A stretch of 64,000 nt of DNA. Origin: Acidobacteriota bacterium. Lineage in GTDB: Bacteria; Acidobacteriota; UBA890; WLXD01. Positions 3,106-22,812 of the stretch are shown piece after piece (the stretch's first letter is position 1; each line of letters starts with the position of its first letter). The stretch covers positions 512,001-576,000 of the forward strand of contig CAXWPH010000014.1 in assembly GCA_963666055.2 (NCBI GenBank), given 5' to 3'. The translations under genes were made by a program, and so were the position numbers. The notes beneath the pieces were generated by a model, which was given only the letters and a program-made list of their open reading frames with translations, had not been told where the DNA came from and ran no database searches.

Positions 3106-4608
3106 AGAACGCTGTCATCTATTGCAGAGTTTCCACCGAGGATCAGGTGAAGAATCTGAGCCTCACGACTCAAGAGGAGTTCTGCCGACGCCATTGCGAA
3201 CGGGCTGACTTCGCGGTTCGAGAGATATTTGTCGACCGAGGGGCATCAGCGAAGACAGCGAACCGGCCGAGTTTCCAGGCGATGCTTGTATATTGCCGTC
3301 GGCACGCCCGGAGTATCGACTTCGTCGTTGTCTACCGGCTTGATCGCTTCGCCCGGAACGTCTACGACCACGTCGACGTGATCGGGCAGTTGGGCGAATG
3401 GGGGATTCTTCTCCGGTCAGTGACGGAGAGAATCGATGAAACCCCTACCGGCAAGTTCATGGCTACCATGGTCGCCGCGGTAAGCCAGTTGGACAATGAT
3501 GTTCGCCGGGAAAGGACCATCGACGGCATGCGTGCCGCACTCAAGCGAGGAAGATGGACGTTTCCGCCGCCGCTGGGGTACCTGCCGGGGAACAGGAGTC
3601 GTGGTGAAGCAAGCCTAATCTTTGACCCCGAACGGGCCGACTTGGTGCGCAGGGGCTTCGAGCTGATGGCAAAAGGTGCGCAGTCGCAGGCAGCGGTACT
3701 GGAAACCCTTACGGCTTTGGGGCTGCGAACAAAGCGTGGAAAGCTATTGCGGCCGCAAGAATTCGCGAAGTCGCTCCGGAAGCCTGTGTACGGTGGCCGG
3801 GTTGTATGCGAGAAGTTGGGCGTTGACGAACAGGGCGACTTCGAACCATTGGTCGACCAGAAGACGTACCAGCAGGTGCAGCGCCGTCTCGATGGGGGTA
3901 GACCGCGCATGAGGGACAACCCGGACTTTCCGCTTCGGCGGTTTGTTCGCTGTGAGAGATGCGAGCAGCCGGCTTACTGCCGGATGGTCACGGGGGCGCA
4001 GCGCGAGCTACGCCTACTACCGATGCCCGAAGTGCAGCCGTCCCGGCGTTAGCGCCCGTAGGCACGTTCTTGAAGAGGCTTTCATTGAGGAACTCACTTG
4101 TGTGCAACCGGACCCGCGTGTGTTGCCGCTATTCGCGGAGATTGTGCGCGACTTGTGGACCGAAGAGCGAAGCCTTGAAGACGCAGAGGCTCGCCAGCTC
4201 GCGAGGCGCATAGAAGATCGAGAGAAGGTTCGTGAGCGGCTCCTGAATGCGCTCTTGCGCGGCGCGGTCGACGACGAGACATATCGGCAGCACGACGAGA
4301 AATTGCGAAAGGAGACCGCCGAGGCGGAGTCACAGCGGATTGGTATCCGCTCTGACGAACCAGATGTTGAGGTGGTGATCGCGTTTGCTGCCGAGGTGAT
4401 GTCGGACCTTGCCGGATATTGGAACCGGGCTGAACCCTCGGCGAAGACTGCCTTGCAGAGAGTTGTGTATCCCGGAGGTTTGACTTTCGACGGCGAACGA
4501 CTTGGAACCGCCGTAACTAGCCCTGTTTTCAGCTACTTGCAGGGATTCACGGACCAGAAAAACAAATTGGCAGCCCTAACGGGATTTGAACCCGTGTCTC
4601 CGCCTTGA
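3102..4608 (+). CDS. Large serine recombinase/integrase (resolvase, recombinase and Zn-ribbon domains), +1 frameshift near 3971
   Basis: AVIYCRVSTEDQ catalytic motif, VVYRLDRFARN, PPLGY, RCERCEQP|LTAGWSRGRSASYAYYRC Zn ribbon, then a coiled coil. ORFs 3081..4052 and 3943..4608 join if one G is removed. Confidence 0.9.
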
Positions 4609-4645
4609 GAGGGCGGTGTCCTGGGCCAGGCTAGACGATAGGGCC
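4568..4645 (-). tRNA. tRNA-Glu (anticodon CTC)
   Basis: GGCCCTATCGTCTAGCCTGGCCCAGGACACCGCCCTCTCAAGGCGGAGACACGGGTTCAAATCCCGTTAGGGCTGCCA folds as a cloverleaf with encoded CCA. Confidence 0.95.
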
Positions 4646-7747: not shown

Positions 7748-9145
7748 ATGAGATCGATCGTCTGCGCAACCCTCGCGTTCTGGGCGCTGGCTGTACCAGC
7801 GGCGTCGGCCCAAGGCCTCGACCGTGCTGCGGTGCCGCGGCAACAGTTGCCGGGCAGTCAAGCGGCCCAGCAACAGCAGCAGACATCCACCGGCGGCGAC
7901 ACCCAGGCATCGCAGCAGCCCCAGCAGGAAGAAGAAGAGCAAGGTCCCGCCGGCTTGCTCGTGTTCCTCGATTGCGATCGCCGCAATTGTGACCTCGACT
8001 ACCTGCGCCGCGAGATCACGTTCATCAACTACATGCGCGATCGCCAGGATGCCCAGATCCATGTACTCGTAACCACGCAGCGCGCCGGGGCCGGCGAGGA
8101 ATTTACCTTCGACTTCATCGGCCTGCGGGAGTTCGAGGGCGACGACCACAGCTTCACGTACACGTCGAGCAGCACGGACACCGACGACGAAACTCGCGCC
8201 GGCGTCGCGCAAATGCTCCGTGTCGGCATACTCCACTACCTGGCCAAGACGCCGCTGATCAACGACATTGAGATCCGCGCGGCAGTTGAAACCATGGAGC
8301 GGCGGTTCCTGGTGGTGGACCCGGCCGACGATCCGTGGAATTTCTGGGTGTTTCGCTTCGGCGTCGACGGCCGCATCGGCGGCGAGGACAGACGCTCCAA
8401 CCGCAACGTCAACTTCAACGCCTCGGCCAACCGCACCACCGAGGAATGGAAGTTGCGTTTCAACGCCAACCTGCGCTACGACGACCGCAAGTTCATCTTC
8501 GACGATGGCAGCGAATCGTTTTCGTTCAACCACATCTGGTGGCTCAACCACCAGACTGTGAAGAGCCTCGGCGAGCATTGGGGGGCATCGTTCGAGGTAT
8601 CGACAATGCACGCGACGTTCGTCAACACCGATCTGGTCGCTACCATCGCCCCCGGCATCGAGTACAACATCTTTCCCTTTTCGGAATCGTCGCGCCGGTC
8701 GTTCACGATCACGTATCAAGTCGGCGGCAGCTACAACCAGTACATTGAACCAACGATCTTCGGGGTGACGGAAGAGACCCTCTTCGACCACTCGCTGCTG
8801 GTGAACCTCGACGCGGTGCAGCCCTGGGGTGAGCTGGAGGTCGGAATGGACGCGGCGCAGTACTTCACCGATCCGAGCCAGTGGCGCTTGGTATTCCAAG
8901 GCCGATTGGAGTTCCGCATCGTCAGAGGGTTGAACTTCAACGTCAGGGGCAATTGGGCGGCCATCCACGACCAGCGTTTTATCGCCGCCGGCGGCCAAAC
9001 CGACGAGGAGATTCTTCTCCAGCGCCGGGCGTTGGCAACCAATTCGCGCTACAGCTTCAGGGTGGGCTTCAATTACACCTTCGGGTCGATCTTCAACAAC
9101 GTGGTGAATCCGCGATTCACCAACGATTTCAACCGCTTCTTCTAA
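7748..9145 (+). CDS. Secreted, probable outer-membrane beta-barrel protein of unknown function
   Basis: Signal peptide MRSIVCATLAFWALAVPAASAQ, Q/E-rich linker, VFLDCDRRNC, amphipathic beta strands, C-terminal YTFGSIFNNVVNPRF...FF. Confidence 0.8.
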   Translation: MRSIVCATLAFWALAVPAASAQGLDRAAVPRQQLPGSQAAQQQQQTSTGGDTQASQQPQQEEEEQGPAGLLVFLDCDRRNCDLDYLRREITFINYMRDRQDAQIHVLVTTQRAGAGEEFTFDFIGLREFEGDDHSFTYTSSSTDTDDETRAGVAQMLRVGILHYLAKTPLINDIEIRAAVETMERRFLVVDPADDPWNFWVFRFGVDGRIGGEDRRSNRNVNFNASANRTTEEWKLRFNANLRYDDRKFIFDDGSESFSFNHIWWLNHQTVKSLGEHWGASFEVSTMHATFVNTDLVATIAPGIEYNIFPFSESSRRSFTITYQVGGSYNQYIEPTIFGVTEETLFDHSLLVNLDAVQPWGELEVGMDAAQYFTDPSQWRLVFQGRLEFRIVRGLNFNVRGNWAAIHDQRFIAAGGQTDEEILLQRRALATNSRYSFRVGFNYTFGSIFNNVVNPRFTNDFNRFF

Positions 9146-9212
9146 CAGAGTGCTCAAAGACTCCCGAGGGTGCCCGTAACGGCACCCCCGGGGGGCTCTC
9201 AGCACCCTGCTG
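9143..9212. repeat. Short palindromic repeat, family 2 (copy 1)
   Basis: TAACAGAGTGCTCAAAGACTCCCGAGGGTGCC-CGTAAC-GGCACCCCCGGGGGGCTCTCAGCACCCTGCTG; related copies at 34935 and 35317. Confidence 0.7.
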
Positions 9213-9291
9213 AGCGTTTCTTGGTTGCCTCTGGGCCGCCGCCCGCGCACACTGCCCGGAAGTTCGCCATTCATCGGCAACCGAGGCGCCC

Positions 9292-9732
9292 ATGGCCAAG
9301 AAAGGCCAAATCCCGGACCAGCTGCCCGCCGCGTTCGATTTCGGCCGCGTTCCCGTAAACCGCCACTTCGGGTTCTCGCTGCAGTCGGTCCGGCGCGGCA
9401 AGGCAGAGGTGGCCATGCCGCTGAAACGGTCCTTCTGGCAGGAAGAAGGCGTGGTGCACGGCGGCGTCCTTACGACACTCGCCGATACCGCGGCGGTGTA
9501 TACGATCTCCCCGTTTCTCGACGACGACCAAACGATGACGAGCATCGAGTTCAAGATGAACTTCTTGCGCCCGGCTTCGATCGATGCGGGTTCGGTTACC
9601 GCCAAGGCCAGCCTCGTACGGCAGGGCAAAACGATTGCCCTCTGCGAGGTCGACGTCATGCAGACTCGTCGACTCGTCGCCACGGGGTTGTTCACCTACT
9701 TGATCTATTCGAAGGACGAAGCCGGCAACTAG
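9292..9732 (+). CDS. PaaI-family (hotdog-fold) thioesterase
   Basis: VVHGGVLTTLADTA and TSIEFKMNFLRP motifs. Confidence 0.92.
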   Translation: MAKKGQIPDQLPAAFDFGRVPVNRHFGFSLQSVRRGKAEVAMPLKRSFWQEEGVVHGGVLTTLADTAAVYTISPFLDDDQTMTSIEFKMNFLRPASIDAGSVTAKASLVRQGKTIALCEVDVMQTRRLVATGLFTYLIYSKDEAGN

Positions 9733-9736
9733 CCTG

Positions 9737-10399
9737 ATGGGACCGCGACCGTTCGAGCCGACATTCGAGAGCTTACCGGGGGTGCTTCCGGTTTTTCCGT
9801 TGTCCGGTGCCCTCCTACTGCCGCGCTGCCGTCTCCCCCTCAACATCTTCGAGCCGCGCTACTTGCAGATGACCGAAGATGCGCTGGCCGGCGATCGTTT
9901 CATCGGCATGGTGCAGCCGCGCGATCCTGAACCGTTCGACCATCGCCCCGATATCTTCCCCACAGGCTGTGCGGGGCGCATCAGCTCCTTCAGCAAAACC
10001 GACGACGGCCGCATGCTGATTATCCTGACCGGGGTCAGCCGCTTCGACGTCGAGTCAGAGCTCGGTACCGACTCGCCGTATCGTCAGATAGTGCCGCGTT
10101 GGGACAGATATCGCTCGGATCTGATCGAGCAAGCCGACGGCGCCATCGATCGAGAGCGGCTCTACGCCTCGCTGCGTGTGTACTTCGAGTCGCGCGATCT
10201 CGACACCGATTGGGAGATGCTCGAGGAGGCCACCGACGAGCACCTGATCAACTCGTTGGCGATGTCTTGTCCTTTCGGCCCTTCCGAAAGGCAGGCTCTG
10301 CTCGAGGCCGGTGATGTGACCGAGCGTGGCCGCCTGATGCTCGCGCTCCTCGACATGGCAACCCTCGATCAGGTGGGCGGCGAGCTGCCGCTGCAGTAG
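9737..10399 (+). CDS. LON peptidase substrate-binding (N-terminal) domain protein
   Basis: LPVFPLSGALLLPRCRLPLNIFEPRYLQM...ERQALLEA. Confidence 0.92.
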   Translation: MGPRPFEPTFESLPGVLPVFPLSGALLLPRCRLPLNIFEPRYLQMTEDALAGDRFIGMVQPRDPEPFDHRPDIFPTGCAGRISSFSKTDDGRMLIILTGVSRFDVESELGTDSPYRQIVPRWDRYRSDLIEQADGAIDRERLYASLRVYFESRDLDTDWEMLEEATDEHLINSLAMSCPFGPSERQALLEAGDVTERGRLMLALLDMATLDQVGGELPLQ

Positions 10400-10417
10400 T
10401 TCAGGGCTCCAAACTTC

Positions 10418-11938
10418 TTACCGGCGGACGTTTTGGCGTTTTCGCAAAACCTGCCCCGGCCGCGCCCCGGTTGGCGCGCCGTCACGCCACACCAGCTCAC
10501 CGCCGACCCAGACGTACTCGATCCCGGTCGACAACAGCTCGGGCTCCTCGAACGTGCTGCGATCGCCTACCGTTCCGGGGTCGAAAGCCACCAGGTCGGC
10601 AATCGCGCCGCGCCGTACCACGCCGCGCTGCTCGAGCCCAAGGCGCTGCGCCGGCATGGAGGTCATCTTGTGCACGGCTAGCTCCAGCGACATCACCTGC
10701 TCGTCGCGGACGTAGCGCCCCAAGACGCGGGGGAAGGTGCCGGCGCCACGCGGATGGGCGCTGCCGATGCCGCCATCGCTGCACACCATGACCAACGGAC
10801 TGGCGGCGAACCGGTCGACGTCTTCGAGCTTCATGGTGTGGCCGATCACGCCGCCGCCGCCGGCCTCCATCATCTCGATGTACATTTCGACCGGGGTCTT
10901 GTTCTTAAGCTCGGCGATCTCGTCGAGCCGCAATCCTTCTACTGACGGGTCGGGTTCGTAGCGCGTTACCTGTATCCGGTTGGCACCGCCCAGCGCCGCG
11001 AGCCCTTCGGCAACGGCTTCCGGATCGCTGAAGCGGCGCGAGCGCACGACGATCGACAGCGACGAGGCCCAGGCCGGGTAGGGATACCAATCGGCCGTGA
11101 TGTCAAGGCCGCTCTGGCGCGCCGCGGCGAGCTTGTCGAGCGCCTCCTCCGATCGATCCCAAACGCTGGCGTTGCCCATCTTGATGTGTGAGATCTGCAC
11201 CGGCAGGCCGCCTTCAAACCCGATCCGAATGACTTCGTCGATGGCGTCCATGACGGTCTCTTCCTCGTCGCGCATGTGAGACATGTAAAAGCCGCCGAAG
11301 CCTGCGGCTACCTCGGCCAGTGCGATCAGCTCTTCGGTGCTCGAGTAGAAGCCGGGGTCGTATTCCAGGCCGCTCGACAGGCCGAAGGCGCCTTCTTCCA
11401 TGCCGGTACGGATGAGCTCGGCCATCTGCGTTACTTCCTGCGCCGTGGCCTGGCGCTTGAAGTCGTCGCCCATTACCTGACGGCGCGCCGTGCCGTGTCC
11501 GACCAAGGTGGCCACGTTGACCACCGGCTGCGCCGCCTCGACCTGGCGCAAGTATTCACCGACCGGCCACTGCGAGCCGCCGTCGGCGCCGCCGACGATG
11601 GTGGTGAGCCCCTGGGAGATCAGCGCCTCGGCTTGAGGTTGCCGAATGATGGCGCGGTCCGAGTGGTTGTGAATGTCGATGAATCCGGGCGCCAGCACGA
11701 GGCCGTCGAGGTCGATGACGCTCGGATTGTCACCCGGTTCCATGCGCCTGCCTTCCTCGACGCTGACGATGCGCCCGTTCTCGATCACCACGTGGCCGGT
11801 GAACGGGCGACTGTTCAGGCCGTCGACGATCGTCGCGTTGATCAGCAGCACACGGCCCTGCTGCGCGGCGCCGGAGCCGGTGATCGTGAGCACCGCGATG
11901 AACAGGCCGATGAGAATTCTGACGCTGTTAGGTCGCAT
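10418..11938 (-). CDS. Secreted N-acyl-D-amino-acid deacylase (amidohydrolase)
   Basis: Signal peptide, APGFIDIHNHSD, GLSSGLEY, SHMRDE, CSDG, HPRGAGTFPRVLG. Confidence 0.92.
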   Translation of the reverse strand: MRPNSVRILIGLFIAVLTITGSGAAQQGRVLLINATIVDGLNSRPFTGHVVIENGRIVSVEEGRRMEPGDNPSVIDLDGLVLAPGFIDIHNHSDRAIIRQPQAEALISQGLTTIVGGADGGSQWPVGEYLRQVEAAQPVVNVATLVGHGTARRQVMGDDFKRQATAQEVTQMAELIRTGMEEGAFGLSSGLEYDPGFYSSTEELIALAEVAAGFGGFYMSHMRDEEETVMDAIDEVIRIGFEGGLPVQISHIKMGNASVWDRSEEALDKLAAARQSGLDITADWYPYPAWASSLSIVVRSRRFSDPEAVAEGLAALGGANRIQVTRYEPDPSVEGLRLDEIAELKNKTPVEMYIEMMEAGGGGVIGHTMKLEDVDRFAASPLVMVCSDGGIGSAHPRGAGTFPRVLGRYVRDEQVMSLELAVHKMTSMPAQRLGLEQRGVVRRGAIADLVAFDPGTVGDRSTFEEPELLSTGIEYVWVGGELVWRDGAPTGARPGQVLRKRQNVRR

Positions 11939-12190
11939 CGAGATTGTCTCCCGGGTAATTCGATTGTTGCTCGGGCACGAGTCTGCGTGGCGTTGGAGGC
12001 TTGCGCAAGGGGGGCGCGGCGCGCCGCGGAAAGGTCGTCGGCTACCGCACCGGGCGGCAGCCCGATATCCTTGTAAAAAGCAGCCTCAAGCGCCCGTCCG
12101 CCGAGGCCCCACCCTTTATATTCGAGCCGTACTTCATACGTCCCGGGCGATTTGGACACGCGTTTCTCATGATGGCTGGAGTTCTTCATT

Positions 12191-15100
12191 TTGGAGCAGA
12201 ACCGCTTTGACGTCATCGTCGTAGGCGGTGGCCCTGCCGGTATCACCGCTGCAACCGCACTCGGCCGCGCCGGGTTCTCGGTACTCGTTTGCGAGGCGGC
12301 GGTGTATCCAGGAGCCGAGAACTGGTCCGGCGCCGTTTATTTCGCCGAGAACATCGAGGCTCCGGAGGCCTTCGGCCGGGCGGCGATCGAAAGCGGTCCC
12401 ATTGAGCGCCCGCTCGTCGAGCGTGGCTTCTACTCCTACAACGGCCACTCGATGTTGGGCGCGGCACTGCGCGACCCGAAGGTGTTCCGCTCCTGCTACA
12501 CGGTTCTGCGGCCGGTTTTTGACCGCTACCTCGCTGAGCTTGCCCGCGAGCACGGCGTCGTGTTGCTGTGCGAGACCACCGTCCAGAGCCTGATCCGCCA
12601 CCAGGGCCGCATCATCGGCGTGCACACCGAGCGCGGTCCGGCCTATGCCGATGTCGTGTTCCTGGCCGAGGGCGACGCCTCGCACCTGGTGACGCAGGAG
12701 GGCTACGAGCGCGTCGGTCCGGACGCCGGCGAGGGGGGATCGGAGAGCGGCCCGCACTTCCTGCAGGGCGTGAAGGAAGTCGTTTCGCTGTCGCCCGAGA
12801 TCATCGAGGAGCGTTTCGGGCTGCCGGCCGGGGGCGGCGGCGCCTACGAAATACTGCTGCGCAACGGCACACGCCATGGCCGCACCGTGCGCCTCAACAT
12901 GGGTGGCTTCATCTACACCAATCGCGACAGCTTGTCACTGGGATTCGTGCTGCCTGTCGATAACCTGGCGGAGAATTTCGACGGCGACCACAACCTGCTG
13001 ATGGAGTGGTTCAAGGGGCTGCCGGAGATCGAGCGCTGGATTGACGGCGGCGAAGTAACTTCCTACGGCGCGAAGATCATCCGCGGCGGCGGCTTGCGTG
13101 AGATCCCGCGGCTGATCGACGATGGCCTGGCGATCGGCGGCGCCGCCAGCGGCATCGGCCTCGACTTTCCGTACCCCAACTTCACCGGCCCGGCGACGGC
13201 GATGGGCCTCTTGTTCGCCGCCGCTGTGCAGAAGATCGCCGCCGACAACGGCGGTCCGGGCGGCGGTTCCGGCGACTGTCCGTTCAGCGCCGCGGCGCTC
13301 GAGCAGACCTACGTCAGGCCGCTGCAGCGAACCCACTACTACCGCAACGTCGAGCGCCTCGCCGACTGGCCCGGGTACATCGAGCGCACCCGTTTCTTCT
13401 TCGATCAGCAGGTCGATCTCGCCAATAGCGTGGCGTTCATCGTGTCGCGTCCCGACATCTCCGCGCCGCGTCGCTGGTGGGAGGCGCTGCGCCTCGAGCG
13501 CCGGCTCATCGTGACCAAGCACTTCAAGAGCGTGCTTGCTGACTTGCGGGAGAATTCCGGGGCCCTCGGCCTCGGGCGGGCCGCCCGGGAGGGTTTTGGT
13601 ATCGGCACACCCGTGCGCTGGTTGTTCAACACCGTCTCAGCCTTGTTGCCGAGCCGCCGCACATCCATTGGCGGCGACAAGTCAACGGGTGTTGCGATCG
13701 CCACCACGCCCGGTGGCGGCGAGTTTCGTGTGACGTATCGGGTCCTGGCGGGCGCCGAGGTGCCCGGTCGTTTGCCGCTCGTTGCCCGGTGGTACTGGAA
13801 ACGCTTCGGCCCGGCGATGGGCGATGCCTTCGCCGACGTCTACACGAACGACGACGAGCCGCTGGATACCAAGTTGCCGCGTGCCTTGGGTCGTTTGATC
13901 GACCAGTTTTCCGCGTGGGATGCGGTGCTGTCCGTCGTCTCCTTGGTGGCGGGAGCCCTGACCTTGCTGGCCCAGTCTTCGATCGAGTGGTTCCAGTACG
14001 CCGTGCTGAAGAAGGATCTGTCGGCGTTTCGCGAGCAGTTCGTCGCCCGGTTGCTCGATGACAATCGCCGCCGTATCCGCCTCGATGACGACGCCGTGGA
14101 GATCAGGACGTCCTACGAGCACAAGCTCGGCACGATTCGCTATCGCGTGGGGCAGCATTCGCACATCAAAGTGCTGTGGCCCGACGATCTTGCGGCGCGT
14201 GGTGAGCTGGTCGACTCGCCGCTGTGGAACGTCTGCCCCGCCAAGGTCTACGAAGTCGATCGGAATCCGCGCGGCATGCCCGGCGTCGTCGTCAACTTCG
14301 ACAACTGTGTCAAGTGTGAGACTTGCTGGCGCGCCACCCCCGACGTGCACTGGAGTCGGGCAACGCAGCAGCGGCTGATCTACGAGACCTATACGCCGAC
14401 CCATGCCGAGCTGCGCAACTACTTGCTGACGCGGACCGAGCCGGTGGCACGTTTGCGACGGCTGCCGAGCTACTGGGAGGCGTACTGGTCGGGATCTTCC
14501 GACTTGTCGACGAGCTCCGAACAAGCGGCGCTTCTGACGGGTGTCGAGGCCGAGCTGCGTCGCTTTAGCGCGGCGCTGGACGGCTACTCACAGGCGCTCG
14601 GCGATTCGCCGCCGGCGCTGGAGCAAGGCGAGCGCTACTACCTGGAGGAACTGCTGGCCTCGGCGACGCGGCGCTTCGAAGCCGCGCGGGCGCTGTGGCA
14701 GACGGAGGCGCTGGAATCGCTGCGCGCAGCAGCCGACGGTGCGGCGGCAGTGTGGGCCGACGCCGCCGAAAGGGTGGAGGAATTGGCGCGGCACGCTGCT
14801 GCCAAGCGCTATTTCTGGTCGGACGTGGTGGGCAAGCAACTTCGCGAGCACCATGTCGAGGGACTTCTCGTTTTACTGCGGCGTGAAGCTGCCGGTGTCG
14901 ATCAACTCGCTCCGCAGCACGGGTTGCCTTCCGAACCGTGCGAGGCATGGTCGTGGATCGCCGGTTGGCCGGCCGTCGAATGCCGGCCGCTGGCATTCGA
15001 AACGCACCGCAAAACGATTCGTGACTGGTGCGACGCGCACGTCGACTCCGCCGTTCTCAACCGGCTCGAGGAGGGGCTGCCGATCAGCACGGAACTTCGC

Positions 15101-18100
15101 GACTGGCTTGCCGCGGAGCTCAGGACGGCGGTTGCGTCGGGGCGCGATGGCGAAACCTGGTCGGACCCGGCAAACCGCGCCACGCCGGCGACGCCCCGCT
15201 ACGGGCAGCGAGACGTATTGCTCGAGGAGCTCTCTGCGTGTGATCCGTCGTTGGCGGCACTGGCCGCCCAGCATCTGCTCGCCTGTGATCTGCTCGACGG
15301 TGTTGCGGCAGCCGATCCGACACTGATTGACAACCTGCGCGCCGGACGGCAGCTGGCGACTGTCGTATCGCAGGGAGCCATTTGCAACGAGCTGATCGTC
15401 TCGGGCAAGGCGGCGGAGGGTGTTGCCGCTGTGGCAGCCGAAGCGGGTGTCGAGCTTCACGGCGTAGCACCGTTGGTTGCTACGGCGTTGGCCGATTGGT
15501 TGCTCGTGGTGCGTGACAATCGCGGCTACCTAGTGCCGATCGATGACCCGGGAGTGAAGCTCGAGGACGTGGGTTGCATCGGGCTGGTCGGCGCCGCCGT
15601 GCGGCGGGTGATCTTCGACGGTTGCGTTGTACCGCCGGAACACCTCTTCGATGTTCCTTCGATCGACGAAAGGTCTGCCTTTACGGCGCCGGCCGTCGGC
15701 GAGCCGTTTGCTGATCTTCTGCGAATCGGCGTGCTCGATCACCTGGCAATCGTGCGGGGCGCGGGCACCTACTTGACGCAGCGTGCGCGTGAGCATGCCG
15801 CCACTCGGGTTCAGTTCCCCGATTCTTTCCAGGACGAGGCCGGCCGGGACACGATCGCCAAGTTCGGCGCCGTGAAGCGACTCATGGCCGAGATGGAAGC
15901 GCAGCGCATCCTGGTGGAGTCGCTCAGTATCATCGATCCGGGACCGACCGACGACCCGTGGATTGGTGCCGCGGTGCGCAAGGTCCTCGCCGCCGACGCC
16001 TTCGGGCCGAATCGAGGCTCGTTGGGCTACAACTGCGGCCAGGTGTTCGCTGGCACGGCATTTTCCGAAGACGACTGCATCGCCAAGTACTACCGCGACA
16101 GCAGTCCGTTCCGCTTCTTGCTCGCCCACGACGACGCGCTGCGTGTCGAGATCGGCCGCCGCCGACTTGCAGCAGTACGGCAGGGCAACTCTTTGGTCCC
16201 GCTGTCGCCGGGCGAGGCGGCGTGGCTCGGTGCCCTGGGTGACGAAGCTCCTTTGGCCGCCGCGGTGCCGCGCTGGGAGGCAGCCTGCGCCAAGATCGAC
16301 GGGTGGGCCGATAGCGTCGCGGCGGCCGACGAACCAATGGCCGAGCTCCTGTGCTTTCAAGCCGGCGGCGTGGTTGCGTCGGCGTTGGCTGTCAAGGTCT
16401 GTCTGTTGCGCACCGGTTGGCGTCTCGAGTCCGGTTTGCCTGCCCAGGCGACGCGCGCAGCGACCAACCTTCTCAACGACGAGTTCTGTGCCGCCGTTCC
16501 GGGGGTCATCGACGATGCTCAACTTCTTGCTGAAACTCTCGAAGTCGGTGACGAGACGATCATCCACGGCGATTTCGAGCCCGCCGCCGACATCGCCGAC
16601 GCGGAGCCCTATCGCGCCGTGCTCGAGACCGATCACGGTGCCGATTCCGGAGAATGGCTGGTCGGAGGTTTCGACGGCGAGCGACTCCGCTACGTGCCCG
16701 AGATCCTGTGGAACGACCCGGAGCTAGGCGCGTTTCGCGACAGGGTGGAGGCGGAGCAGCGACGGCGCTACGTCGAGCCACGCTTCGACGGGCTGACGTA
16801 CAACCGGTATCTCGAGAAGCTGCACATCGTGCCGCGCGATGATCTCGACTACCTGGTTGACGAAGGCTTCCTGCGCATGCCGATCCCGACGTCGCTCGGC
16901 GGTGAAGGGGTACTGAAGGCGCTCTACTACATCGTCTGCGAGATGACGGGTCGCTACGGCGACGCGGCGCTGTCGCTGGCCATAATGGCCAACACGAGTA
17001 TCGGCACGACGCCCATGCTCCTCGGTCTCAAACAGGACCTGCCGCGCGCCCGCGCCGAGCTCGAGAGGGTCAAGGGCGACCCGACGCTGCTCGGCGAGAT
17101 ACACGACGGCCTCGACAAGCTGATCGCCGGCATGGCGCGTCCCGATCTCGAGGCGCTGCAGCGTGACTACCTGGCGCTGATGGAGCTGGTCAAGGCGCGC
17201 ATCGTCAAGTCGAGCGTGCTCAAGTACATCGGCGGCGGCTTCCTGCGCGCTTTCTTCGCCGCCGGACAGGCCGGCGAGCAGCGTGACCTCGACAGCTTTG
17301 CCGACAACCTGCGGCAAGCCCGCGAGCGTCTCGACGAGATCCTCGAAGGTGTCGAGGACCGGCTCATCGAGTACCCGCGCCGCGAGCGGGCGCACGAGCT
17401 GTTCTTGAAGATGATCTCGGCCGGCTACATCTCGGCCTTCGCGCTCACCGAGCCGACTGCAGGATCCGACTCGGGCGGCGTGAAGACATCGGCGCGCCTT
17501 GATCGGCGGCGCGTCTATTGCGACGACGACGGCGTCCTGTACTTCTGGCTCGACGATAAGGCCGAAAGCGAACGGCGCAACCTCCTCGACGCCGACCGGG
17601 TTGGGTTCGACTTCGATCGCCACAAGATGCTCTATCGCTTCTCAGAAGACGCCGAAGCTGCGGAGATCAACCACGACGCCTTCGACTACGACAGCCGGGA
17701 GCTGCCGAGCAAGTGGCGCACCTATCGTCACGGTGATCGCGACGTTGCGTTCACCGACATCGCGCAGATTCGTGAGGATGAGGCCGGTGACCTCTGGTAC
17801 GAGTACTGGGAGCTCAACGGCGTCAAGATGTGGATCACCAACGGGCGCTTCGCCCATTGCTTCGCGCTGTACGCCACGACCGAGCCGGAGGGCGTTACCG
17901 GTTTCATGGTCGACCGCCACGCCGAGGGCATGGTGGTCGGCGCCGACGAAGAGAAGCTCGGCCAGCGTGCCTCGCCCACCAACGAGTTGTCGCTCACCGG
18001 AGTGCGCGTGCCGCGCGAGTGCATCATCGGTTTCCGCGGCCGCGGCCAGGTCAACGCCCTCGAAACGCTGAATACCGGGCGTACCGGCTTGGCGGTGACG

Positions 18101-20941
18101 GCGCGCTCCGGTATCCAGGAAATACTCGAGGACGCAGTGGCGTTCTTCAGCGAGACGCGACCCAGCGCGTACCCGAAGCAGGGAGCGCCGGCGACCGCGC
18201 TGCAGACCTACTGGATGGGACGCCTTACCGAGGAGCTCATCGGCACCGCCGCCGTTGCCAACGAGCTGATCGGCCTGTTCGACCATCCACTAACCAAGAA
18301 CGTGCGCATGGAGTCAGCGATCGGCAAGTACTACGGCAGCGAGGCGCTGCACGACGGCATCGAGTGGATGGAGCGATTGCGTGGGCTCGATGGCTTGACC
18401 CACCGCCATCGCATCGAGAAGACGCGCCGTGACGCGCGGGTGCTCAACATCTACGAAGGCACCAACGAAGTTCAGCGCTACCTGTTGTTGCGCGACCTGG
18501 CGCAGCGCGTGCTGCCGGCGTGGAAGGCGGCTCAGAAAGATAGCGACGGCGCGGAAGTAGACACGGCCGGCGCGCATCCCGATCTGCGCCGGCAGCTAGA
18601 GGACGTCAAGCAGCGCCTGATGTCACGGCTGCAGGACGCCGACGCGGCGTTCGGCCAACTCATCTGGTCGAACGTCAATCTACAGCCGTGCTTCTTTTGG
18701 CTGGCCGAGATTTCCGGCCTCATCAAGGTGATGGACGCGGTGCTGTATCGCCTCGAATGGCTGGCCGCCCACGACGTGGCCGCCGTGTACCGCGAGCGCC
18801 TCGAGCGCGCTTCGCGCCTGGCATTTCGCCGTTGCGGGGTGCGCATCGACACGCTCGAGCGTTTGTTCACTGCTGCCCACGCCTATCTGCAGGACGGGCG
18901 CTACCCGCCGGATGTGCAGCTCGGGTTCCTGGCTCTCGACGAGGCCGGCGTCATCGCCGAGGCGTGGGGGGTCATGCCCGCGTCGCGTCGCCCGCAGCCG
19001 GAACTACCGCCGCTGGCCGACGATGTGCGCATCGTCGTACTCATCAAGTCGGTGCCCTCGGTTGCCCCGCGGCCGCGGGTCGGCCATGAGTCGTTCGAGG
19101 AATCGCTGCACTCAATCGACCAGGTCGACGTCCGATCGCTGCAGATGGCGCTCGATCTCAAGCGCCGAGATCCGGCGCGGGTAACCGTGGCCGCTTATAC
19201 GCTGGCTGGGGCCACCGGCAACGAGGCACTCCGCCAGGCATTGGCGATGGGAGCCGACGAAGCGCAGATTCTGGTGGGTGGCGAGACGGTACCGGTTCAA
19301 GACCCCGCCCGGGTGGCGCGCATTGTCGGAGGTTGGCTGCAGGACAAGCCGGCCGACATCGTGTTCTGCGGCGCCGCCGCTTCGGACACCTCGCAAGGTA
19401 TCGTCGGCCCCGCACTCGCCGGTGCTCTGGGCCGTGAGTTTCTCGCCGGCGTTACGGAAGTGCGCTGGAGTCCGGCGCCGGAGCCGCTGTTGCACGTCGG
19501 CGCAAGCGGTTGGCAAGGTCACCACATCGATGTGCCGGTGCCCTGCGTCATCGCGACGGCGGCGCACGCCGAGCACGCCGAGGCCGAATACCGGGTCGGT
19601 GGTTTCGTGGCCGCGTTAGCGGCAGCAATCGGCAGGCTCGAGGCCCGCGATTCGGAAGTCGGTGCTTTGCGTGTTGCCCACGTGCCTCGTGCCATTGCCG
19701 GCGGCGGCACTACGGTTCAGATCGCCCGCACGCCGGAGGATGCCGCCGATGTGTTGTTGCGCACGTCCGGGCTGACCGATGCGGTGTCGAGTTCCGAGGC
19801 CGATTCCTACGCCGGCGATCCGGCCGGCTTCGGCCAGCAGCCGGAAGACCCGTCTCCTGTCTGCCTGTTCGTTTGCGCGCCTGTGGCCGCCACCGACATG
19901 GAATCGTCCACGCAGGCGTCCCTGGAATCGGCTGCTCGTCTGGCGGCCGGCGTCGACTTGCCGCTGGACGTGGTGTTGCCGGTGACGGGTCCCGAGGCTC
20001 TCGCTGCGGGAGTGGGGCAGGTGATTGCCGATGTCGGGCCACGGCGCATCTATGTGCTGGAGCAGGCCGACATCGATCGGCTCGGCTACCGAGGTCACAT
20101 CGAGTGGCTCGAGGAGTTCTGGGGCATGTACCGTGGCCAGCCCGAATGGCTGCTCGGGCCGGAATGGGCACGCACGCTGTTCGCCTACTTCGGCGGCCAG
20201 GGACCGCCCGCCGTAGAAAGGAGCTGGTCCTGGTTCGGTGTCGAGCGGGTGAGCAATGGTGGACCGGAGATCCGACTCGGCACATCCATTCTCGACGGTG
20301 CGGCTCGCGCCGTCGCGACGGTGCCGAAAACAGGCGGCTTGCGCATCGTCACGTTTGCCGGCGCCGCCGCAATCGATCTGCCGGACATCGCGAGCTCCGC
20401 TGATGCGACGCAAGTGTTTGCCTACCAACCGCGGCTCGACTACGACCTCGCGTCCGATCCGGCGGCGGCTCTGATGAGTCGCCTGGGCGGCGGAGAGCTG
20501 ACGCTGCAGGCGGCCGAATACATCGTCGATTTCGGCTATGGCGCCGGGGGTCGGGAGGGCCTCGCGGAACTCGCCGAGCCGCTCTTGAGCATCCTGGCAG
20601 ACGAGCTCGGGCTGCCCAACGCGATGATCGGCGCGACGCGCAAGGTCACGCAAGATCTCGAAGTGCTGCCCATGGATCGCCAGATCGGACAGACCGGTGT
20701 GCGTGTACACCCCAAGGTGCTGGTAGCGCTGGCAGTTTCAGGCGCCCCGCAACACGTCGACTGGATCGACGACGAGACTGTCATCCTCGCCTTCAACGTC
20801 GACCCCGACGCGCCCCTGATGAGGCTCAACGAGCAGCGCCCGAATCCGGTGGTTCATCCGATCGTGGGTGACGTTTGGGAAACCATCCCGCGGTTTATGG
20901 CCGCCCTGCGCGCGGGCGAGCGGGCGCAAGGATCGCGATGA
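12191..20941 (+). CDS. 2916-aa multidomain flavoprotein: FixC-like oxidoreductase, FixX ferredoxin, two acyl-CoA dehydrogenase modules, ETF beta, ETF alpha
   Basis: GGGPAG/GGFIYTNRDSLSLG (FixC); CPAKVY...CVKCETC (FixX); ACAD-like module 1; FALTEPTAGSD, GVKMWITNG, IYEGTNEVQR (ACAD module 2); LIKSVP, ALAMGAD, GAAASDTSQG (EtfB); IGATR, QIGQTG, AVSGAPQH (EtfA). Confidence 0.9.
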   Translation: MEQNRFDVIVVGGGPAGITAATALGRAGFSVLVCEAAVYPGAENWSGAVYFAENIEAPEAFGRAAIESGPIERPLVERGFYSYNGHSMLGAALRDPKVFRSCYTVLRPVFDRYLAELAREHGVVLLCETTVQSLIRHQGRIIGVHTERGPAYADVVFLAEGDASHLVTQEGYERVGPDAGEGGSESGPHFLQGVKEVVSLSPEIIEERFGLPAGGGGAYEILLRNGTRHGRTVRLNMGGFIYTNRDSLSLGFVLPVDNLAENFDGDHNLLMEWFKGLPEIERWIDGGEVTSYGAKIIRGGGLREIPRLIDDGLAIGGAASGIGLDFPYPNFTGPATAMGLLFAAAVQKIAADNGGPGGGSGDCPFSAAALEQTYVRPLQRTHYYRNVERLADWPGYIERTRFFFDQQVDLANSVAFIVSRPDISAPRRWWEALRLERRLIVTKHFKSVLADLRENSGALGLGRAAREGFGIGTPVRWLFNTVSALLPSRRTSIGGDKSTGVAIATTPGGGEFRVTYRVLAGAEVPGRLPLVARWYWKRFGPAMGDAFADVYTNDDEPLDTKLPRALGRLIDQFSAWDAVLSVVSLVAGALTLLAQSSIEWFQYAVLKKDLSAFREQFVARLLDDNRRRIRLDDDAVEIRTSYEHKLGTIRYRVGQHSHIKVLWPDDLAARGELVDSPLWNVCPAKVYEVDRNPRGMPGVVVNFDNCVKCETCWRATPDVHWSRATQQRLIYETYTPTHAELRNYLLTRTEPVARLRRLPSYWEAYWSGSSDLSTSSEQAALLTGVEAELRRFSAALDGYSQALGDSPPALEQGERYYLEELLASATRRFEAARALWQTEALESLRAAADGAAAVWADAAERVEELARHAAAKRYFWSDVVGKQLREHHVEGLLVLLRREAAGVDQLAPQHGLPSEPCEAWSWIAGWPAVECRPLAFETHRKTIRDWCDAHVDSAVLNRLEEGLPISTELRDWLAAELRTAVASGRDGETWSDPANRATPATPRYGQRDVLLEELSACDPSLAALAAQHLLACDLLDGVAAADPTLIDNLRAGRQLATVVSQGAICNELIVSGKAAEGVAAVAAEAGVELHGVAPLVATALADWLLVVRDNRGYLVPIDDPGVKLEDVGCIGLVGAAVRRVIFDGCVVPPEHLFDVPSIDERSAFTAPAVGEPFADLLRIGVLDHLAIVRGAGTYLTQRAREHAATRVQFPDSFQDEAGRDTIAKFGAVKRLMAEMEAQRILVESLSIIDPGPTDDPWIGAAVRKVLAADAFGPNRGSLGYNCGQVFAGTAFSEDDCIAKYYRDSSPFRFLLAHDDALRVEIGRRRLAAVRQGNSLVPLSPGEAAWLGALGDEAPLAAAVPRWEAACAKIDGWADSVAAADEPMAELLCFQAGGVVASALAVKVCLLRTGWRLESGLPAQATRAATNLLNDEFCAAVPGVIDDAQLLAETLEVGDETIIHGDFEPAADIADAEPYRAVLETDHGADSGEWLVGGFDGERLRYVPEILWNDPELGAFRDRVEAEQRRRYVEPRFDGLTYNRYLEKLHIVPRDDLDYLVDEGFLRMPIPTSLGGEGVLKALYYIVCEMTGRYGDAALSLAIMANTSIGTTPMLLGLKQDLPRARAELERVKGDPTLLGEIHDGLDKLIAGMARPDLEALQRDYLALMELVKARIVKSSVLKYIGGGFLRAFFAAGQAGEQRDLDSFADNLRQARERLDEILEGVEDRLIEYPRRERAHELFLKMISAGYISAFALTEPTAGSDSGGVKTSARLDRRRVYCDDDGVLYFWLDDKAESERRNLLDADRVGFDFDRHKMLYRFSEDAEAAEINHDAFDYDSRELPSKWRTYRHGDRDVAFTDIAQIREDEAGDLWYEYWELNGVKMWITNGRFAHCFALYATTEPEGVTGFMVDRHAEGMVVGADEEKLGQRASPTNELSLTGVRVPRECIIGFRGRGQVNALETLNTGRTGLAVTARSGIQEILEDAVAFFSETRPSAYPKQGAPATALQTYWMGRLTEELIGTAAVANELIGLFDHPLTKNVRMESAIGKYYGSEALHDGIEWMERLRGLDGLTHRHRIEKTRRDARVLNIYEGTNEVQRYLLLRDLAQRVLPAWKAAQKDSDGAEVDTAGAHPDLRRQLEDVKQRLMSRLQDADAAFGQLIWSNVNLQPCFFWLAEISGLIKVMDAVLYRLEWLAAHDVAAVYRERLERASRLAFRRCGVRIDTLERLFTAAHAYLQDGRYPPDVQLGFLALDEAGVIAEAWGVMPASRRPQPELPPLADDVRIVVLIKSVPSVAPRPRVGHESFEESLHSIDQVDVRSLQMALDLKRRDPARVTVAAYTLAGATGNEALRQALAMGADEAQILVGGETVPVQDPARVARIVGGWLQDKPADIVFCGAAASDTSQGIVGPALAGALGREFLAGVTEVRWSPAPEPLLHVGASGWQGHHIDVPVPCVIATAAHAEHAEAEYRVGGFVAALAAAIGRLEARDSEVGALRVAHVPRAIAGGGTTVQIARTPEDAADVLLRTSGLTDAVSSSEADSYAGDPAGFGQQPEDPSPVCLFVCAPVAATDMESSTQASLESAARLAAGVDLPLDVVLPVTGPEALAAGVGQVIADVGPRRIYVLEQADIDRLGYRGHIEWLEEFWGMYRGQPEWLLGPEWARTLFAYFGGQGPPAVERSWSWFGVERVSNGGPEIRLGTSILDGAARAVATVPKTGGLRIVTFAGAAAIDLPDIASSADATQVFAYQPRLDYDLASDPAAALMSRLGGGELTLQAAEYIVDFGYGAGGREGLAELAEPLLSILADELGLPNAMIGATRKVTQDLEVLPMDRQIGQTGVRVHPKVLVALAVSGAPQHVDWIDDETVILAFNVDPDAPLMRLNEQRPNPVVHPIVGDVWETIPRFMAALRAGERAQGSR

Positions 20942-21040
20942 CTGCGTTGCGCTTGATTCGAGTGCTCGACGTACATTAAGTACGCCTGCGCGCTCGAATC
21001 TGCGCGCGCCTTGTCCTCGCGAGCCTTGCGCCCGCTCGCC
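20915..21040 (+). repeat. Palindromic repeat, family 1 (copy A)
   Basis: 24-bp inverted arms GGCGAGCGGGCGCAAGGATCGCGA / TCGCGAGCCTTGCGCCCGCTCGCC around the core TGACTGCGTTGCGCTTG...TCGACGTAC...GTACGCCTGCG...GCGCGCGCCTTGTCC. Confidence 0.85.
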
Positions 21041-21091: not shown

Positions 21092-21322
21092 TTAGCGGCG
21101 CTTGGCTACCACCCATAGCGAGTTGTGCTCGCCGGTGTCGAAGTTCGCGCCCTTTGATTCGAGCTCCTCGACGGTGAGGTTGTAGGTGGCGCCGTCGGCG
21201 TAGGCGAGCAGCAGACGCCCGCACTCATCACAGGTGGCGATGTCGCGGTGCTTCGCCAGATTCTTCTCAGCTTCTTGCTCGCAGCAGTGCTTCAGGGGCA
21301 TGTCGGGTGATGGCGCTTCCAC
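21092..21322 (-). CDS. Small hypothetical Cys-containing protein (CC and CxxC; possible Zn binder)
   Basis: MPLKHCCEQEAEKNLAKHRDIATCDECGRLLLAY...; protein-like composition. Start is 21322 or 21301. Confidence 0.6.
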   Translation of the reverse strand: MEAPSPDMPLKHCCEQEAEKNLAKHRDIATCDECGRLLLAYADGATYNLTVEELESKGANFDTGEHNSLWVVAKRR

Positions 21323-21402
21323 CAGTCTGTGAAACGAGGGCTCGAACCATTGTAGTCTGTATCCAGAGCTGCGGTTTCCAGCTGACTAAGAGTCAATCTG
21401 TG

Positions 21403-21746
21403 ATGCGCAATCTCAAGGCAGCCACGGCGGTTTGCGGCGTCATCGGGGCGTTGGCGGTCGCAATTGTTACTCCGCTGGCCATCGCCGCGGCCAGTGGGCC
21501 ATCTTGCAGCGCGACCGGCTCGCCAGCCTGCGCCGCTATTACGACCAGAGCACCGTGCGCATCGGTGAGTCGATGCAGCTGGAGATCGGCGGCCGTACGC
21601 TCAACGTGCGACGTCTCCACATCAGTGGGCCGATTCGTACCGGTTACGTCAACGAGTTCGGCCACGTGGTTCGCCTCGATCTCGATCCCGACCCGTGGAC
21701 GCGGAACGACCGCCACATTCGGATGCTCTTTCCGTCGGAGTACTAG
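21403..21746 (+). pseudogene. Internally deleted paralog of the downstream 341-aa protein
   Basis: Signal peptide MRNLKAATAVCGVIGALAVAIVTPLAIAA in one frame; a C-terminal fragment ending IRMLFPSEY in another, matching IRMLYPSEY of 21787..22812. Confidence 0.65.
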
Positions 21747-21786: not shown

Positions 21787-22812
21787 ATGTTTCTCGCCCG
21801 CCCGACGCCGATCCTGACTCTCGTCATCTGGTCGCTGGTCACCGGTGGCGCGACGCCGCCGGCCGCGCCGGTGACCAAGGCGCAGTACAGCGAGGTGTTC
21901 GGGTATCAACTCGGGGAGGAGCGCCATTACATCCTCGAGCCCGACAAGGCGCTGCGCCCGGGGGAGCACGGCATGTGGAGCATTCGCTTCGCAGACGTCG
22001 CCGGTGAAGGCGAGGACCTGAGGTTCATCTTCAATCTGGAGCACGAGCGCAGCGAGCTGATTCGGGACATGTTCGGCGGCCTTTCCGGCCGCCTTCAGAC
22101 AATCCGCGTCGAGTCCGTCCTTACGCTCAACGCTTTCGGGTTCCCGCTGCGTGTGGTGATGAGCGAGCAGCACGAAGTCGCCGGCGAACGCCGCACCGAG
22201 AGCGACATGCGAACCACGATCTTCACGTTCGACGGCGAGCGCTACACCAAGGCCGTGCGCATCGAAGGCCGCGAGTGGCGCTTTCCGATCAGCATCGCCA
22301 AGAACAAGGATCTCAACCTCGAAAGCCGAACCGGTCTGTACACGTTTCTGCCCTCGGCGCTGCGCTGTATGGGCCAGCCGGCGATGATCGGCAGGCCGCG
22401 GCGCTGTGAAGAGGGCGACATCACGTTCGCCAACCCGGGGTTGTTGAGCATCGTGATTCCGGTTCTGCGGGAGGAGAAGGTCAACAAGCGCGAGTTCCTG
22501 TTCTTCAAGCCGGCGGGCGTGGGCACGATGCCGGCCGGGCTGATGGACATGAGCGGCTGGGTGCGACGCGAACGCGACACGCAGCGCAGCATCTCGCGCT
22601 ACTTCGACAAGATGACCATCGAGTTCGAAGCGTACGAAGAGGGCGTCGAGATGGGCGTGCGCACGGTGAGCGCGTGGCGAGTCGAAGCCAGCGGCTCGAT
22701 GCGCAAGTTCTGGGTCGACGCCGAAGACCGGGTCATCAAGGTCGAGCTCGACCCGCACCCGCGCACCAACCAGAAGCGCTGGATCCGCATGCTGTACCCT
22801 TCGGAGTACTGA
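21787..22812 (+). CDS. Secreted hypothetical protein
   Basis: Signal-like N-terminus; 341 aa, beta-rich; paralogous C-terminal fragment immediately upstream. Confidence 0.8.
   Translation: MFLARPTPILTLVIWSLVTGGATPPAAPVTKAQYSEVFGYQLGEERHYILEPDKALRPGEHGMWSIRFADVAGEGEDLRFIFNLEHERSELIRDMFGGLSGRLQTIRVESVLTLNAFGFPLRVVMSEQHEVAGERRTESDMRTTIFTFDGERYTKAVRIEGREWRFPISIAKNKDLNLESRTGLYTFLPSALRCMGQPAMIGRPRRCEEGDITFANPGLLSIVIPVLREEKVNKREFLFFKPAGVGTMPAGLMDMSGWVRRERDTQRSISRYFDKMTIEFEAYEEGVEMGVRTVSAWRVEASGSMRKFWVDAEDRVIKVELDPHPRTNQKRWIRMLYPSEY

Follow-up and report, generated by a model that had tools for sequence, protein, structure and literature searches.

Background

In the canonical route from acyl-coenzyme A (acyl-CoA) to quinone, an acyl-CoA dehydrogenase (ACAD; e.g., the very-long-chain enzyme VLCAD, 3b96/8ca1) passes electrons to the electron transfer flavoprotein (ETF; EtfAB, 1efv/1efp), which passes them to ETF-quinone oxidoreductase (ETF-QO; 2gmh). 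ETF serves as a common, diffusible hub: its mobile flavin domain makes transient contacts with dehydrogenases and with ETF-QO. Here we analysed a 64,000-nt stretch of an Acidobacteriota genome (GCA_963666055.2, contig CAXWPH010000014.1, positions 512,001 to 576,000; hereafter the window), in which a single gene (12191..20941, + strand) encodes a fusion protein predicted to have the same three activities. Like the canonical chain, the fusion shows a predicted VLCAD-type ACAD fold, the Arg, Ser and His of the ETF site for flavin adenine dinucleotide (FAD), and a predicted one-cluster ferredoxin arranged as in 2gmh. Where that chain needs four or five polypeptides, the fusion is a single one, with one predicted ACAD site per pseudo-dimer, an apparently decayed AMP site, an extra helical insertion, a helical bundle and a hydrophobic helix.

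In ChsE heteromers, FAD-binding and catalytic residues are distributed between the subunits, and FadE34 (ChsE3) is a two-domain fusion. These Mycobacterium tuberculosis steroid ACADs (ChsE1-ChsE2, ChsE4-ChsE5, ChsE3/FadE34) have non-identical subunits, given as alpha2beta2 in PMC6678751, and thus resemble by description the two ACAD halves of the fusion; unlike ChsE, those halves are VLCAD-type and lie in one chain with ETF and a quinone reductase. In methylsuccinyl-CoA dehydrogenase and VLCAD, a duplicated ACAD helical domain mimics the missing neighbour subunit, but as presented in PMC5798300 these extensions mimic a dimer-dimer interface and the enzymes stay homodimers, whereas the first ACAD module of the fusion (ACAD1) would replace the FAD-sharing partner itself. 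SaETF, according to PMC12042025, is a monomeric and bifurcating EtfB-EtfA fusion, which like our protein has EtfB ahead of EtfA in one chain, but with ACAD and FixCX partners encoded nearby by genes of their own. The FixABCX/EtfABCX system (Thermotoga maritima, 7koe), in the account of PMC10734219, has the carrier order ET-FAD, Fe-S, FixC-FAD and quinone, which our proposed order follows, and its EtfX holds two [4Fe-4S] clusters. It has FixC and FixX-like domains in common with the fusion; unlike EtfABCX as described there, the fusion lacks bifurcating-FAD signatures, carries one predicted cluster rather than two, and would take electrons from a fused ACAD rather than NADH. We conclude that the predicted mode of action of the fusion is that of the canonical ACAD-ETF-ETF-QO chain rather than of a FixABCX.

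The original prediction for this locus, made from the sequence alone, held that smaller pairwise fusions exist and knew of no described fusion of six modules. A full-text literature search likewise turned up no publication covering the complete fusion, with subscription journals and supplements outside its reach, so that a supplementary figure or table could mention such proteins. Because the chemistry of every part is already known, the novelty is architectural.

Architecture and reality of the fusion gene

The uninterrupted 8.75-kb open reading frame (ORF) of the original prediction encodes 2916 aa (~318 kDa) with zero internal stops; its TTG start lies nine bases past a GGAG (12178-12181), downstream of an in-frame TGA (12170-12172). 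We mapped modules by Pfam, NCBIfam and PDB searches, profiles, alignments and AlphaFold models. The Pfam, NCBIfam and PDB matches gave the order FixC-type FAD domain, ETF-QO-type ferredoxin, ACAD (N-terminal, middle and C-terminal domains), ETF-beta and ETF-alpha, which agrees with the order first reported, with positions within ~100 nt. Linkers between modules differ in length across homologs. The modules and their conservation support, as a prediction, the earlier view that FixC, FixX, ACAD and both ETF subunits in one chain connect acyl-CoA to quinone.

We consider it probable that this protein is a non-bifurcating, membrane-bound FadE-ETF-ETF-QO of beta-oxidation in one chain. With distinctly less assurance, we also lean towards a fuller version, in which this single chain suffices as an acyl-CoA:quinone oxidoreductase, a kind of "complex II for fatty acids" that combines a one-site pseudo-dimer, a tethered ETF flavin domain moving back and forth from donor to acceptor as assembly-line carrier domains do, and a membrane quinone reductase, and that in some lineages has taken the place of all free ACADs and ETFs. 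Judging from its motifs, the second ACAD module (ACAD2) would oxidise acyl-CoA to enoyl-CoA with Glu2089 as the base, and ACAD1, as predicted by docking, would complete the ACAD2 FAD site in cis by supplying the Arg, Gln and Gly usually lent by a second subunit, so that the two modules would form a one-chain pseudo-dimer with a single active site. By analogy with canonical ETFs, the tethered C-terminal ETF domain II may take single electrons from the ACAD FAD and swing to the ferredoxin. The [4Fe-4S] cluster would next hand the electrons to the FixC FAD, which would reduce quinone at a monotopic membrane anchor in the predicted fold, the whole transfer possibly being channelled in cis.

The fusion ORF and its module order are real rather than a product of assembly. 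Over 9546-13012 and 12987-20963, Logan contigs from run X1 (possibly the source sample) match the window without a single difference or gap, and in run X3, from a separate study, four overlapping contigs cover the fusion gene with few substitutions and 0 gaps; this support comes in overlapping pieces, the longest of which is shorter than the whole gene. Among 86 loci fetched, the match lay within one ORF in 82 (43 of them full length), and the remaining four were split by single frameshifts inside a module. Zero splits fell at module junctions, where consistent splitting in homologs would, by the original prediction, have counted against the fusion. An artefactual fusion is ruled out by the gap-free contigs from two studies together with the homologs in single ORFs.

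A length-limited protein search returned 432 matches at an expect value (E) of 0.001 among 7,979 scored, with 120 among the matches listed. Over all searches we gathered 246 proteins of 2,285-3,036 aa sharing the module motifs (each key motif in 233-246 of them), which answers the earlier call to look for proteins above 2500 aa with the same domain order. A length-free profile search returned fused forms, fragments and ordinary ACADs. Annotation pipelines label the fusion "FAD-binding protein", "ETF-quinone oxidoreductase" or "AidB-like".

Two ACAD modules and one predicted composite active site

The FAD site of ACADs is built by both subunits (PMC5798300). As described for human short-chain ACAD (SCAD) in PMC13027082, one monomer contributes F152, L154, S155, T187, G160, S161, E392 and E396, of which Glu392 is catalytic, and the neighbouring monomer lends R297, Q365 and G369 at the FAD. 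In the fusion these contributions are divided between ACAD1 (14981..16585, +) and ACAD2 (16628..18970, +). ACAD2, a predicted catalytic module of the VLCAD/ACAD9/FadE type, carries F1750-x-L-T-E-P-x-x-G-S-D, K-x-W-I-T-N and I-Y-E2089-G-T-N-E, with flavin-ring residues and catalytic Glu present in 115-116 of 116 alignment rows (ACAD2 was aligned to 2z1q and 1jqi). RxQFG and QxxGGxG were not found in ACAD2, where a variable stretch takes their place, and both are present in ACAD1.

ACAD1 reads as a catalytically dead pseudo-subunit with the partner-side FAD motifs kept and a VLCAD-like helical extension. It gave zero Pfam matches, and its C-terminal part matched solved ACADs in profile searches (1buc, E 1e-9; VLCAD, E 9e-9). 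Its C domain keeps R1206-x-Q-F (Q1208, F1209), K-F-G, Q1284-x-x-x-G1288-x-x-x-S-E and R-D; it contains neither TEPxxGSD nor WITN nor the catalytic Glu, the RIFEG position being RFLLA here and variable among rows. The N-terminal and middle domains of ACAD1 are decayed and, in ~2,480-aa forms, largely deleted; these forms have no middle domain but retain the C-terminal part. The conserved columns of both modules hold in 113-116 of the 116 rows, and TEPxxGSD, KxWITN, IYEGTNE and QxxGG..SE never occur twice per chain in the 246 long proteins. Two working ACAD sites are thus ruled out, since ring motifs and Glu occur in ACAD2 alone and partner residues in ACAD1 alone. Both ACAD modules of the original prediction are present, but they are predicted to be halves of one active site rather than two enzymes.

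The predicted structures agree with this division. An AlphaFold model of aa 1170-2262 (the ACAD1 C domain, linker and ACAD2) forms a single body (predicted template modelling score, pTM, 0.91) and is closest to dimeric VLCAD/ACAD9/FadE enzymes (3owa, 8phf, 2z1q, 8ca1; Z 28-30, root-mean-square deviation (rmsd) 2.7-3.1, 477-537 residues aligned); in this alignment, ACAD2 has the C-terminal helical extension of the dimeric ACAD type. When the ACAD1 C domain and ACAD2 were predicted as a two-chain complex without FAD, the score was 0.83 versus 0.00 for the best of three controls, passing a mark reached by 116 of 157 solved pairs and 2 of 215 mismatched pairs, although the pass may stem from likeness to solved ACAD dimers. 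Docking runs agreed in at least 96% of contacts with a partner predicted local distance difference test (pLDDT) value of at least 84, and in the predicted interface Q1284 touches I2087-E2093, with 1207-1210 and 1756-1760 also within it. The divided motif conservation is stronger evidence for a shared site than the docking score, and together they suggest that ACAD1 and ACAD2 likely form one active site from complementary halves. ACAD2 also holds two conserved insertions (window 17066-17785), one helical (aa 1626-1740, ~115 aa) and one beta (aa 1776-1865, ~90 aa).

Apart from the fusion, we observed tandem two-ACAD proteins of ~740-770 aa (P0226, P0239, P0241, P0284), both halves of which resemble ordinary short ACADs; considered as possible ancestors of ACAD1-ACAD2, they showed no link. 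Together with P0290 they make up a group of other ACAD fusions, including a 638-aa ACAD joined to an ETF-alpha FAD domain.

Quinone-reductase and ETF ends

The N-terminal FixC/ETF-QO-type FAD domain (aa 1-420, 12191..13450, +; 7koe_C, E 9e-29) is a predicted quinone-reducing flavoprotein that conserves GxGxxG and ENWSG, with 124 columns at least 95% identical. In an AlphaFold model of aa 1-900 (42 rows; pLDDT 89, pTM 0.91), aa 1-460 lie nearest, among solved structures, to T. maritima FixC 7koe_C (Z 35.5, rmsd 2.2, 426 aligned), and aa 1-734 align with porcine ETF-QO 2gmh_A (31-584; Z 30.8, rmsd 3.3, 486 aligned). Because the alignment to 2gmh_A extends across 1-734, the ferredoxin is predicted to be placed as in ETF-QO despite the 230-residue helical insertion between FixC and FixX (aa 421-650, 13451..14140, +), whose sequence conservation is low. 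The FixX-like ferredoxin itself (14141..14410, +; CPAKVY...CVKCETC) matches 7koe_D at E 9e-4 and carries four Cys (682, 706, 709 and 712) invariant in all 116 rows, consistent with one predicted [4Fe-4S] cluster. All 246 long proteins have a single CxxCxxC, with four Cys in that region in 194 of them and a maximum of 6, and a search of the same proteins for a second Fe-S cluster motif found none.

Within the insertion, Kyte-Doolittle analysis and the model mark a hydrophobic helix (aa 575-604, 13913..14002, +), which is the most hydrophobic stretch in 130 of 161 rows and reaches a 19-residue value of at least 1.6 in 145 of them, these rows including near-duplicates. A membrane-spanning helix is unlikely, as it would separate FixC from FixX, which in the model are packed against each other; aa 575-604 are likely a monotopic anchor within the membrane surface, and the membrane association suggested earlier is likely too. 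A helical bundle (aa 775-900, 14513..14890, +) packs on the FixC-FixX unit, is included in the aa 1-900 model, and is likely a scaffold. The FixC-FixX part would reduce quinone at the membrane. A conserved HA...FFWA...RQL also occurs in this bundle after the ferredoxin, in a region that fold searches barely probed.

At the other end, an EtfB-like domain (19022..19690, +) is followed by the C-terminal EtfA-like module (19838..20920, +), which comprises a strongly diverged N-terminal domain without RPxFGG (19838..20440, +) and a C-terminal FAD domain (domain II; 20483..20920, +) at the chain end. Domain II conserves R2817, QIGQTG, SGAPQH and N-x-D; R2817, Q2831, G2833, Q2834, G2836, S2850-H2855, N2869 and D2871 hold in 114-116 of 116 rows. 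It thus retains QxGQTG and the alpha-FAD Arg, Ser and His of canonical ETF as named in PMC12630350 (R2817, S2850, H2855; 115-116 of 116 rows in key columns). The decayed EtfB and N-terminal EtfA domains likely serve as a structural base.

Genomic context points to beta-oxidation

We further examined the neighbours of the fusion. Of 40 loci whose flanks reach 5 kb or more, 7 carry fadI and/or fadJ on the strand of the fusion and no more than 10 kb away, often along with a long-chain-type fadD; at four loci (L049, L063, L065, L074) the fad genes abut or overlap. Six of the seven fad-linked loci are in our tree (FastTree, 73 rows, a subset of the sequences gathered) and fall into three separate starred clades. 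All 10 carrier genomes probed hold a FadJ-type gene, and none of 11 fadJ regions in carrier genomes, the window's genome (G000) included, has an adjoining ACAD (three regions reach a contig edge). As a separate observation, G000 has a fadD-fadI-fadJ operon with no ACAD adjoining (L104:8730-14075, contig C3), a layout repeated in related genomes.

We also surveyed 40 genomes from a single Verrucomicrobiota order, 26 of them carriers. A full FadJ-type match (E <=1e-100) was found in 26 of 26 carriers versus 1 of 14 non-carriers, with weak partial matches in two further non-carriers. In 25 of the 26 carriers, ETF-alpha matched nothing but the fusion. An ACAD middle-domain match occurred in 25 genomes, and in 24 of these it lay in the fusion alone; the 14 non-carriers had no ACAD middle-domain match. 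These patterns suggest that the substrate is probably an ordinary fatty acyl-CoA of beta-oxidation and not an exotic, dedicated one. The acyl-CoA part of the original prediction therefore stands, but its single dedicated substrate gives way, on the fad operons and FadJ co-occurrence, to probably ordinary beta-oxidation.

Distribution is patchy. By source name, carriers belong to Acidobacteriota, Verrucomicrobiota, Planctomycetota (Gemmataceae) and Gemmatimonadota. The fusion occurs in all 14 sampled genomes of the order of the window's genome versus 0 of 286 others in its phylum, in 1 of 201 Verrucomicrobiota (the centre genome), in 2 of 201 Gemmatimonadota and in 26 of the 40 genomes from the Verrucomicrobiota order surveyed above. 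When 25 genomes from the order of the window's genome were searched, 22 had a best match at E 0, several of these cut by contig ends; the copy in G004 is frameshifted, that in G008 has a stop, and the three genomes without a match are 72-83% complete.

Counter-evidence and alternative explanations

Several observations weigh against a dedicated beta-oxidation enzyme. Every NCBIfam score of the fusion lies far below the curated cut-off (e.g., PRK10015, 158.8/466 bits; FixC, 122.9/610), Fer4_ETF_QO scores just short of its own (23.7/24), and all carrier names seen were metagenome-derived, with no cultured carrier among them. The two ACAD2 insertions are without an assigned role, fold searches having barely probed both, and VLCAD and short-chain enzymes are not told apart in the helix-E alignment, which yields no chain-length assignment. 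Well-flanked loci without a fad neighbour, the window included, number 33 of 40, and their neighbours are unrelated. The Verrucomicrobiota co-occurrence is strong context rather than a statistical test, because the 40 genomes are incomplete and, being kin, do not amount to 40 independent tests. Besides the fusion, G000 has etfBA and fixC-fixX as standalone genes and ~ten other ACAD-like loci, so the fusion need not be its sole FadE. On contig C12 of this genome, the standalone etfB-etfA pair (L107:4063-5789) and a fixC-like gene (L108:6510-8200) are 29 kb apart.

The conserved insertions of ACAD2 could instead select an acyl-CoA of a special kind (branched, aromatic, dicarboxylic or carrier-bound) for the same wiring; the fad neighbours missing at most loci, the other ACADs of G000, and a CoA-transferase III with an acyl-CoA ligase near the fusion at L073 fit this idea. 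We regard it as unlikely, given that 24 of 25 Verrucomicrobiota genomes have no ACAD match besides the fusion, that the fusion and FadJ co-occur tightly, and that operons with long-chain-type FadD, FadI and FadJ occur in three clades. Less likely still, the fusion may serve to co-express its parts, with electrons crossing between chains of an oligomer or after proteolysis and ACAD1 completing the site of another chain. The variable linkers, the dimerisation of EtfABCX via EtfC reported in PMC10734219, and the helical scaffold retained in an ACAD-stripped sister group, as an oligomer partner might retain it, would suit such an arrangement, but the confident single-chain model of ACAD1 C domain, linker and ACAD2 and the zero natural junction splits in 86 loci argue for transfer within one chain.

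Direction is a further question, since ACAD/ETF chemistry is reversible and the sequence of the FixC domain is nearer to FixC and YdiS than to ETF-QO; both would be compatible with a quinol-driven enoyl-CoA reductase or with reverse electron transfer in anaerobes, which the degradative FadD/FadI/FadJ partners and the VLCAD/FadE-type fold make very improbable. The bifurcating mode entertained in the original prediction, a FixABCX-like enzyme oxidising NADH and reducing ferredoxin, did not hold up and is in our view scarcely credible, although the FixC and FixX similarity and the presence of bifurcating CarD among the best EtfB matches favour it. The Gly at the A. fermentans Gly123 position, invariant in bifurcating ETFs according to PMC12630350, is replaced by Thr2400 in this protein and kept in 6 of 116 rows, and the AMP/beta nucleotide loop of EtfB, decayed but present in the window copy, is deleted in 47 of 116. 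The RPxFGG arginine at the bifurcating FAD, which by the account in PMC10734219 is required for bifurcation, is missing at the aligned column, with an RPxFGG-like pattern in 3 of 246 long proteins, and the ferredoxin offers one Fe-S cluster instead of two. Bifurcation is ruled out on these three signatures (the Gly123-equivalent with the beta loop, RPxFGG and the single cluster); as read from its residues, the ETF part is non-bifurcating and without an NADH site. A one-chain FadE-ETF-ETF-QO of beta-oxidation is therefore the reading we retain.

Surroundings and provenance of the window copy

The flanking genes are both on the opposite strand (an amidohydrolase upstream; DUF547 and genes without assigned function downstream), so the fusion is a lone gene at this locus. 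A promoter and terminator scan gave 0 promoter-like sites and 4 terminator-like sites versus 6.1 expected. No RNA dataset was among the listed holders of the sequence, and one putative RNA run gave short pieces ~85-93% alike, which are not expression evidence. The plasmid collection held no match to the fusion at E 1e-40, and the ESM Atlas gave as its sole match an ETF-QO cluster (0.75), which is no more than a lead. Downstream, a 341-aa secreted-looking protein (21790-22812, -) without a Pfam or NCBIfam match is kept within the order, and a shorter ORF opposite to its gene (21307-21745, +) ends in a similar C-terminal motif. Short intergenic repeats resembling repetitive extragenic palindromic (REP) elements (~9140-9215 and 20915-21040) have many matches on both strands in G012 and G024.

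Bases 1-269 of the window are 98% identical to a genome of its own genus. From a tRNA-Glu (4568-4645) to at least 40000, it is colinear with G012, a genome of another family, mostly at 86-97% DNA identity; the fusion protein groups with G012 in the tree, and the contigs of runs X1 and X3 start at 4610. A second fusion copy, on contig C15 (G000:C15:986000-1015000), has a gene order matching that of the window at 53-56% identity, the level of own-genus copies. The window copy, within the segment 4537-40000, probably comes from a mis-joined segment (chimeric at the tRNA) or a large transferred one, which leaves the integrity of the gene unaffected. Reading the two copies as paralogs in one genome is unsafe, as the window segment matches G012.

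The ACAD-stripped sister group (P0231, P0297, P0298, P0255, P0265, P0390, P0287, P0228; mostly 1,650-1,710 aa) keeps FixC, the insertion, the four-Cys ferredoxin and the helical bundle, along with a partial EtfB and traces of each ACAD C domain, and is without the catalytic ACAD core and the EtfA FAD domain. Its members are 46-49% identical to Gemmataceae-type fusions, and some lie on 18-58 kb contigs. They are possibly scaffold-keeping ETF-QOs or partners of the full enzyme, with split genes as an alternative.

Implications

The natural tethering of donor, shuttle and acceptor makes the ETF docking cycle open to cryo-electron microscopy and kinetics and, if the proposal is true, the fusion would be the first object where both ETF docking states could be trapped in one molecule. 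One gene coupling acyl-CoA oxidation to quinone would also be a candidate portable engineering module. For the ACAD family, it would represent a dimer folded into a single chain with divided labour, and for its hosts it would account for the FadE-less fadD-fadI-fadJ operons of uncultured marine, sediment and peat bacteria.

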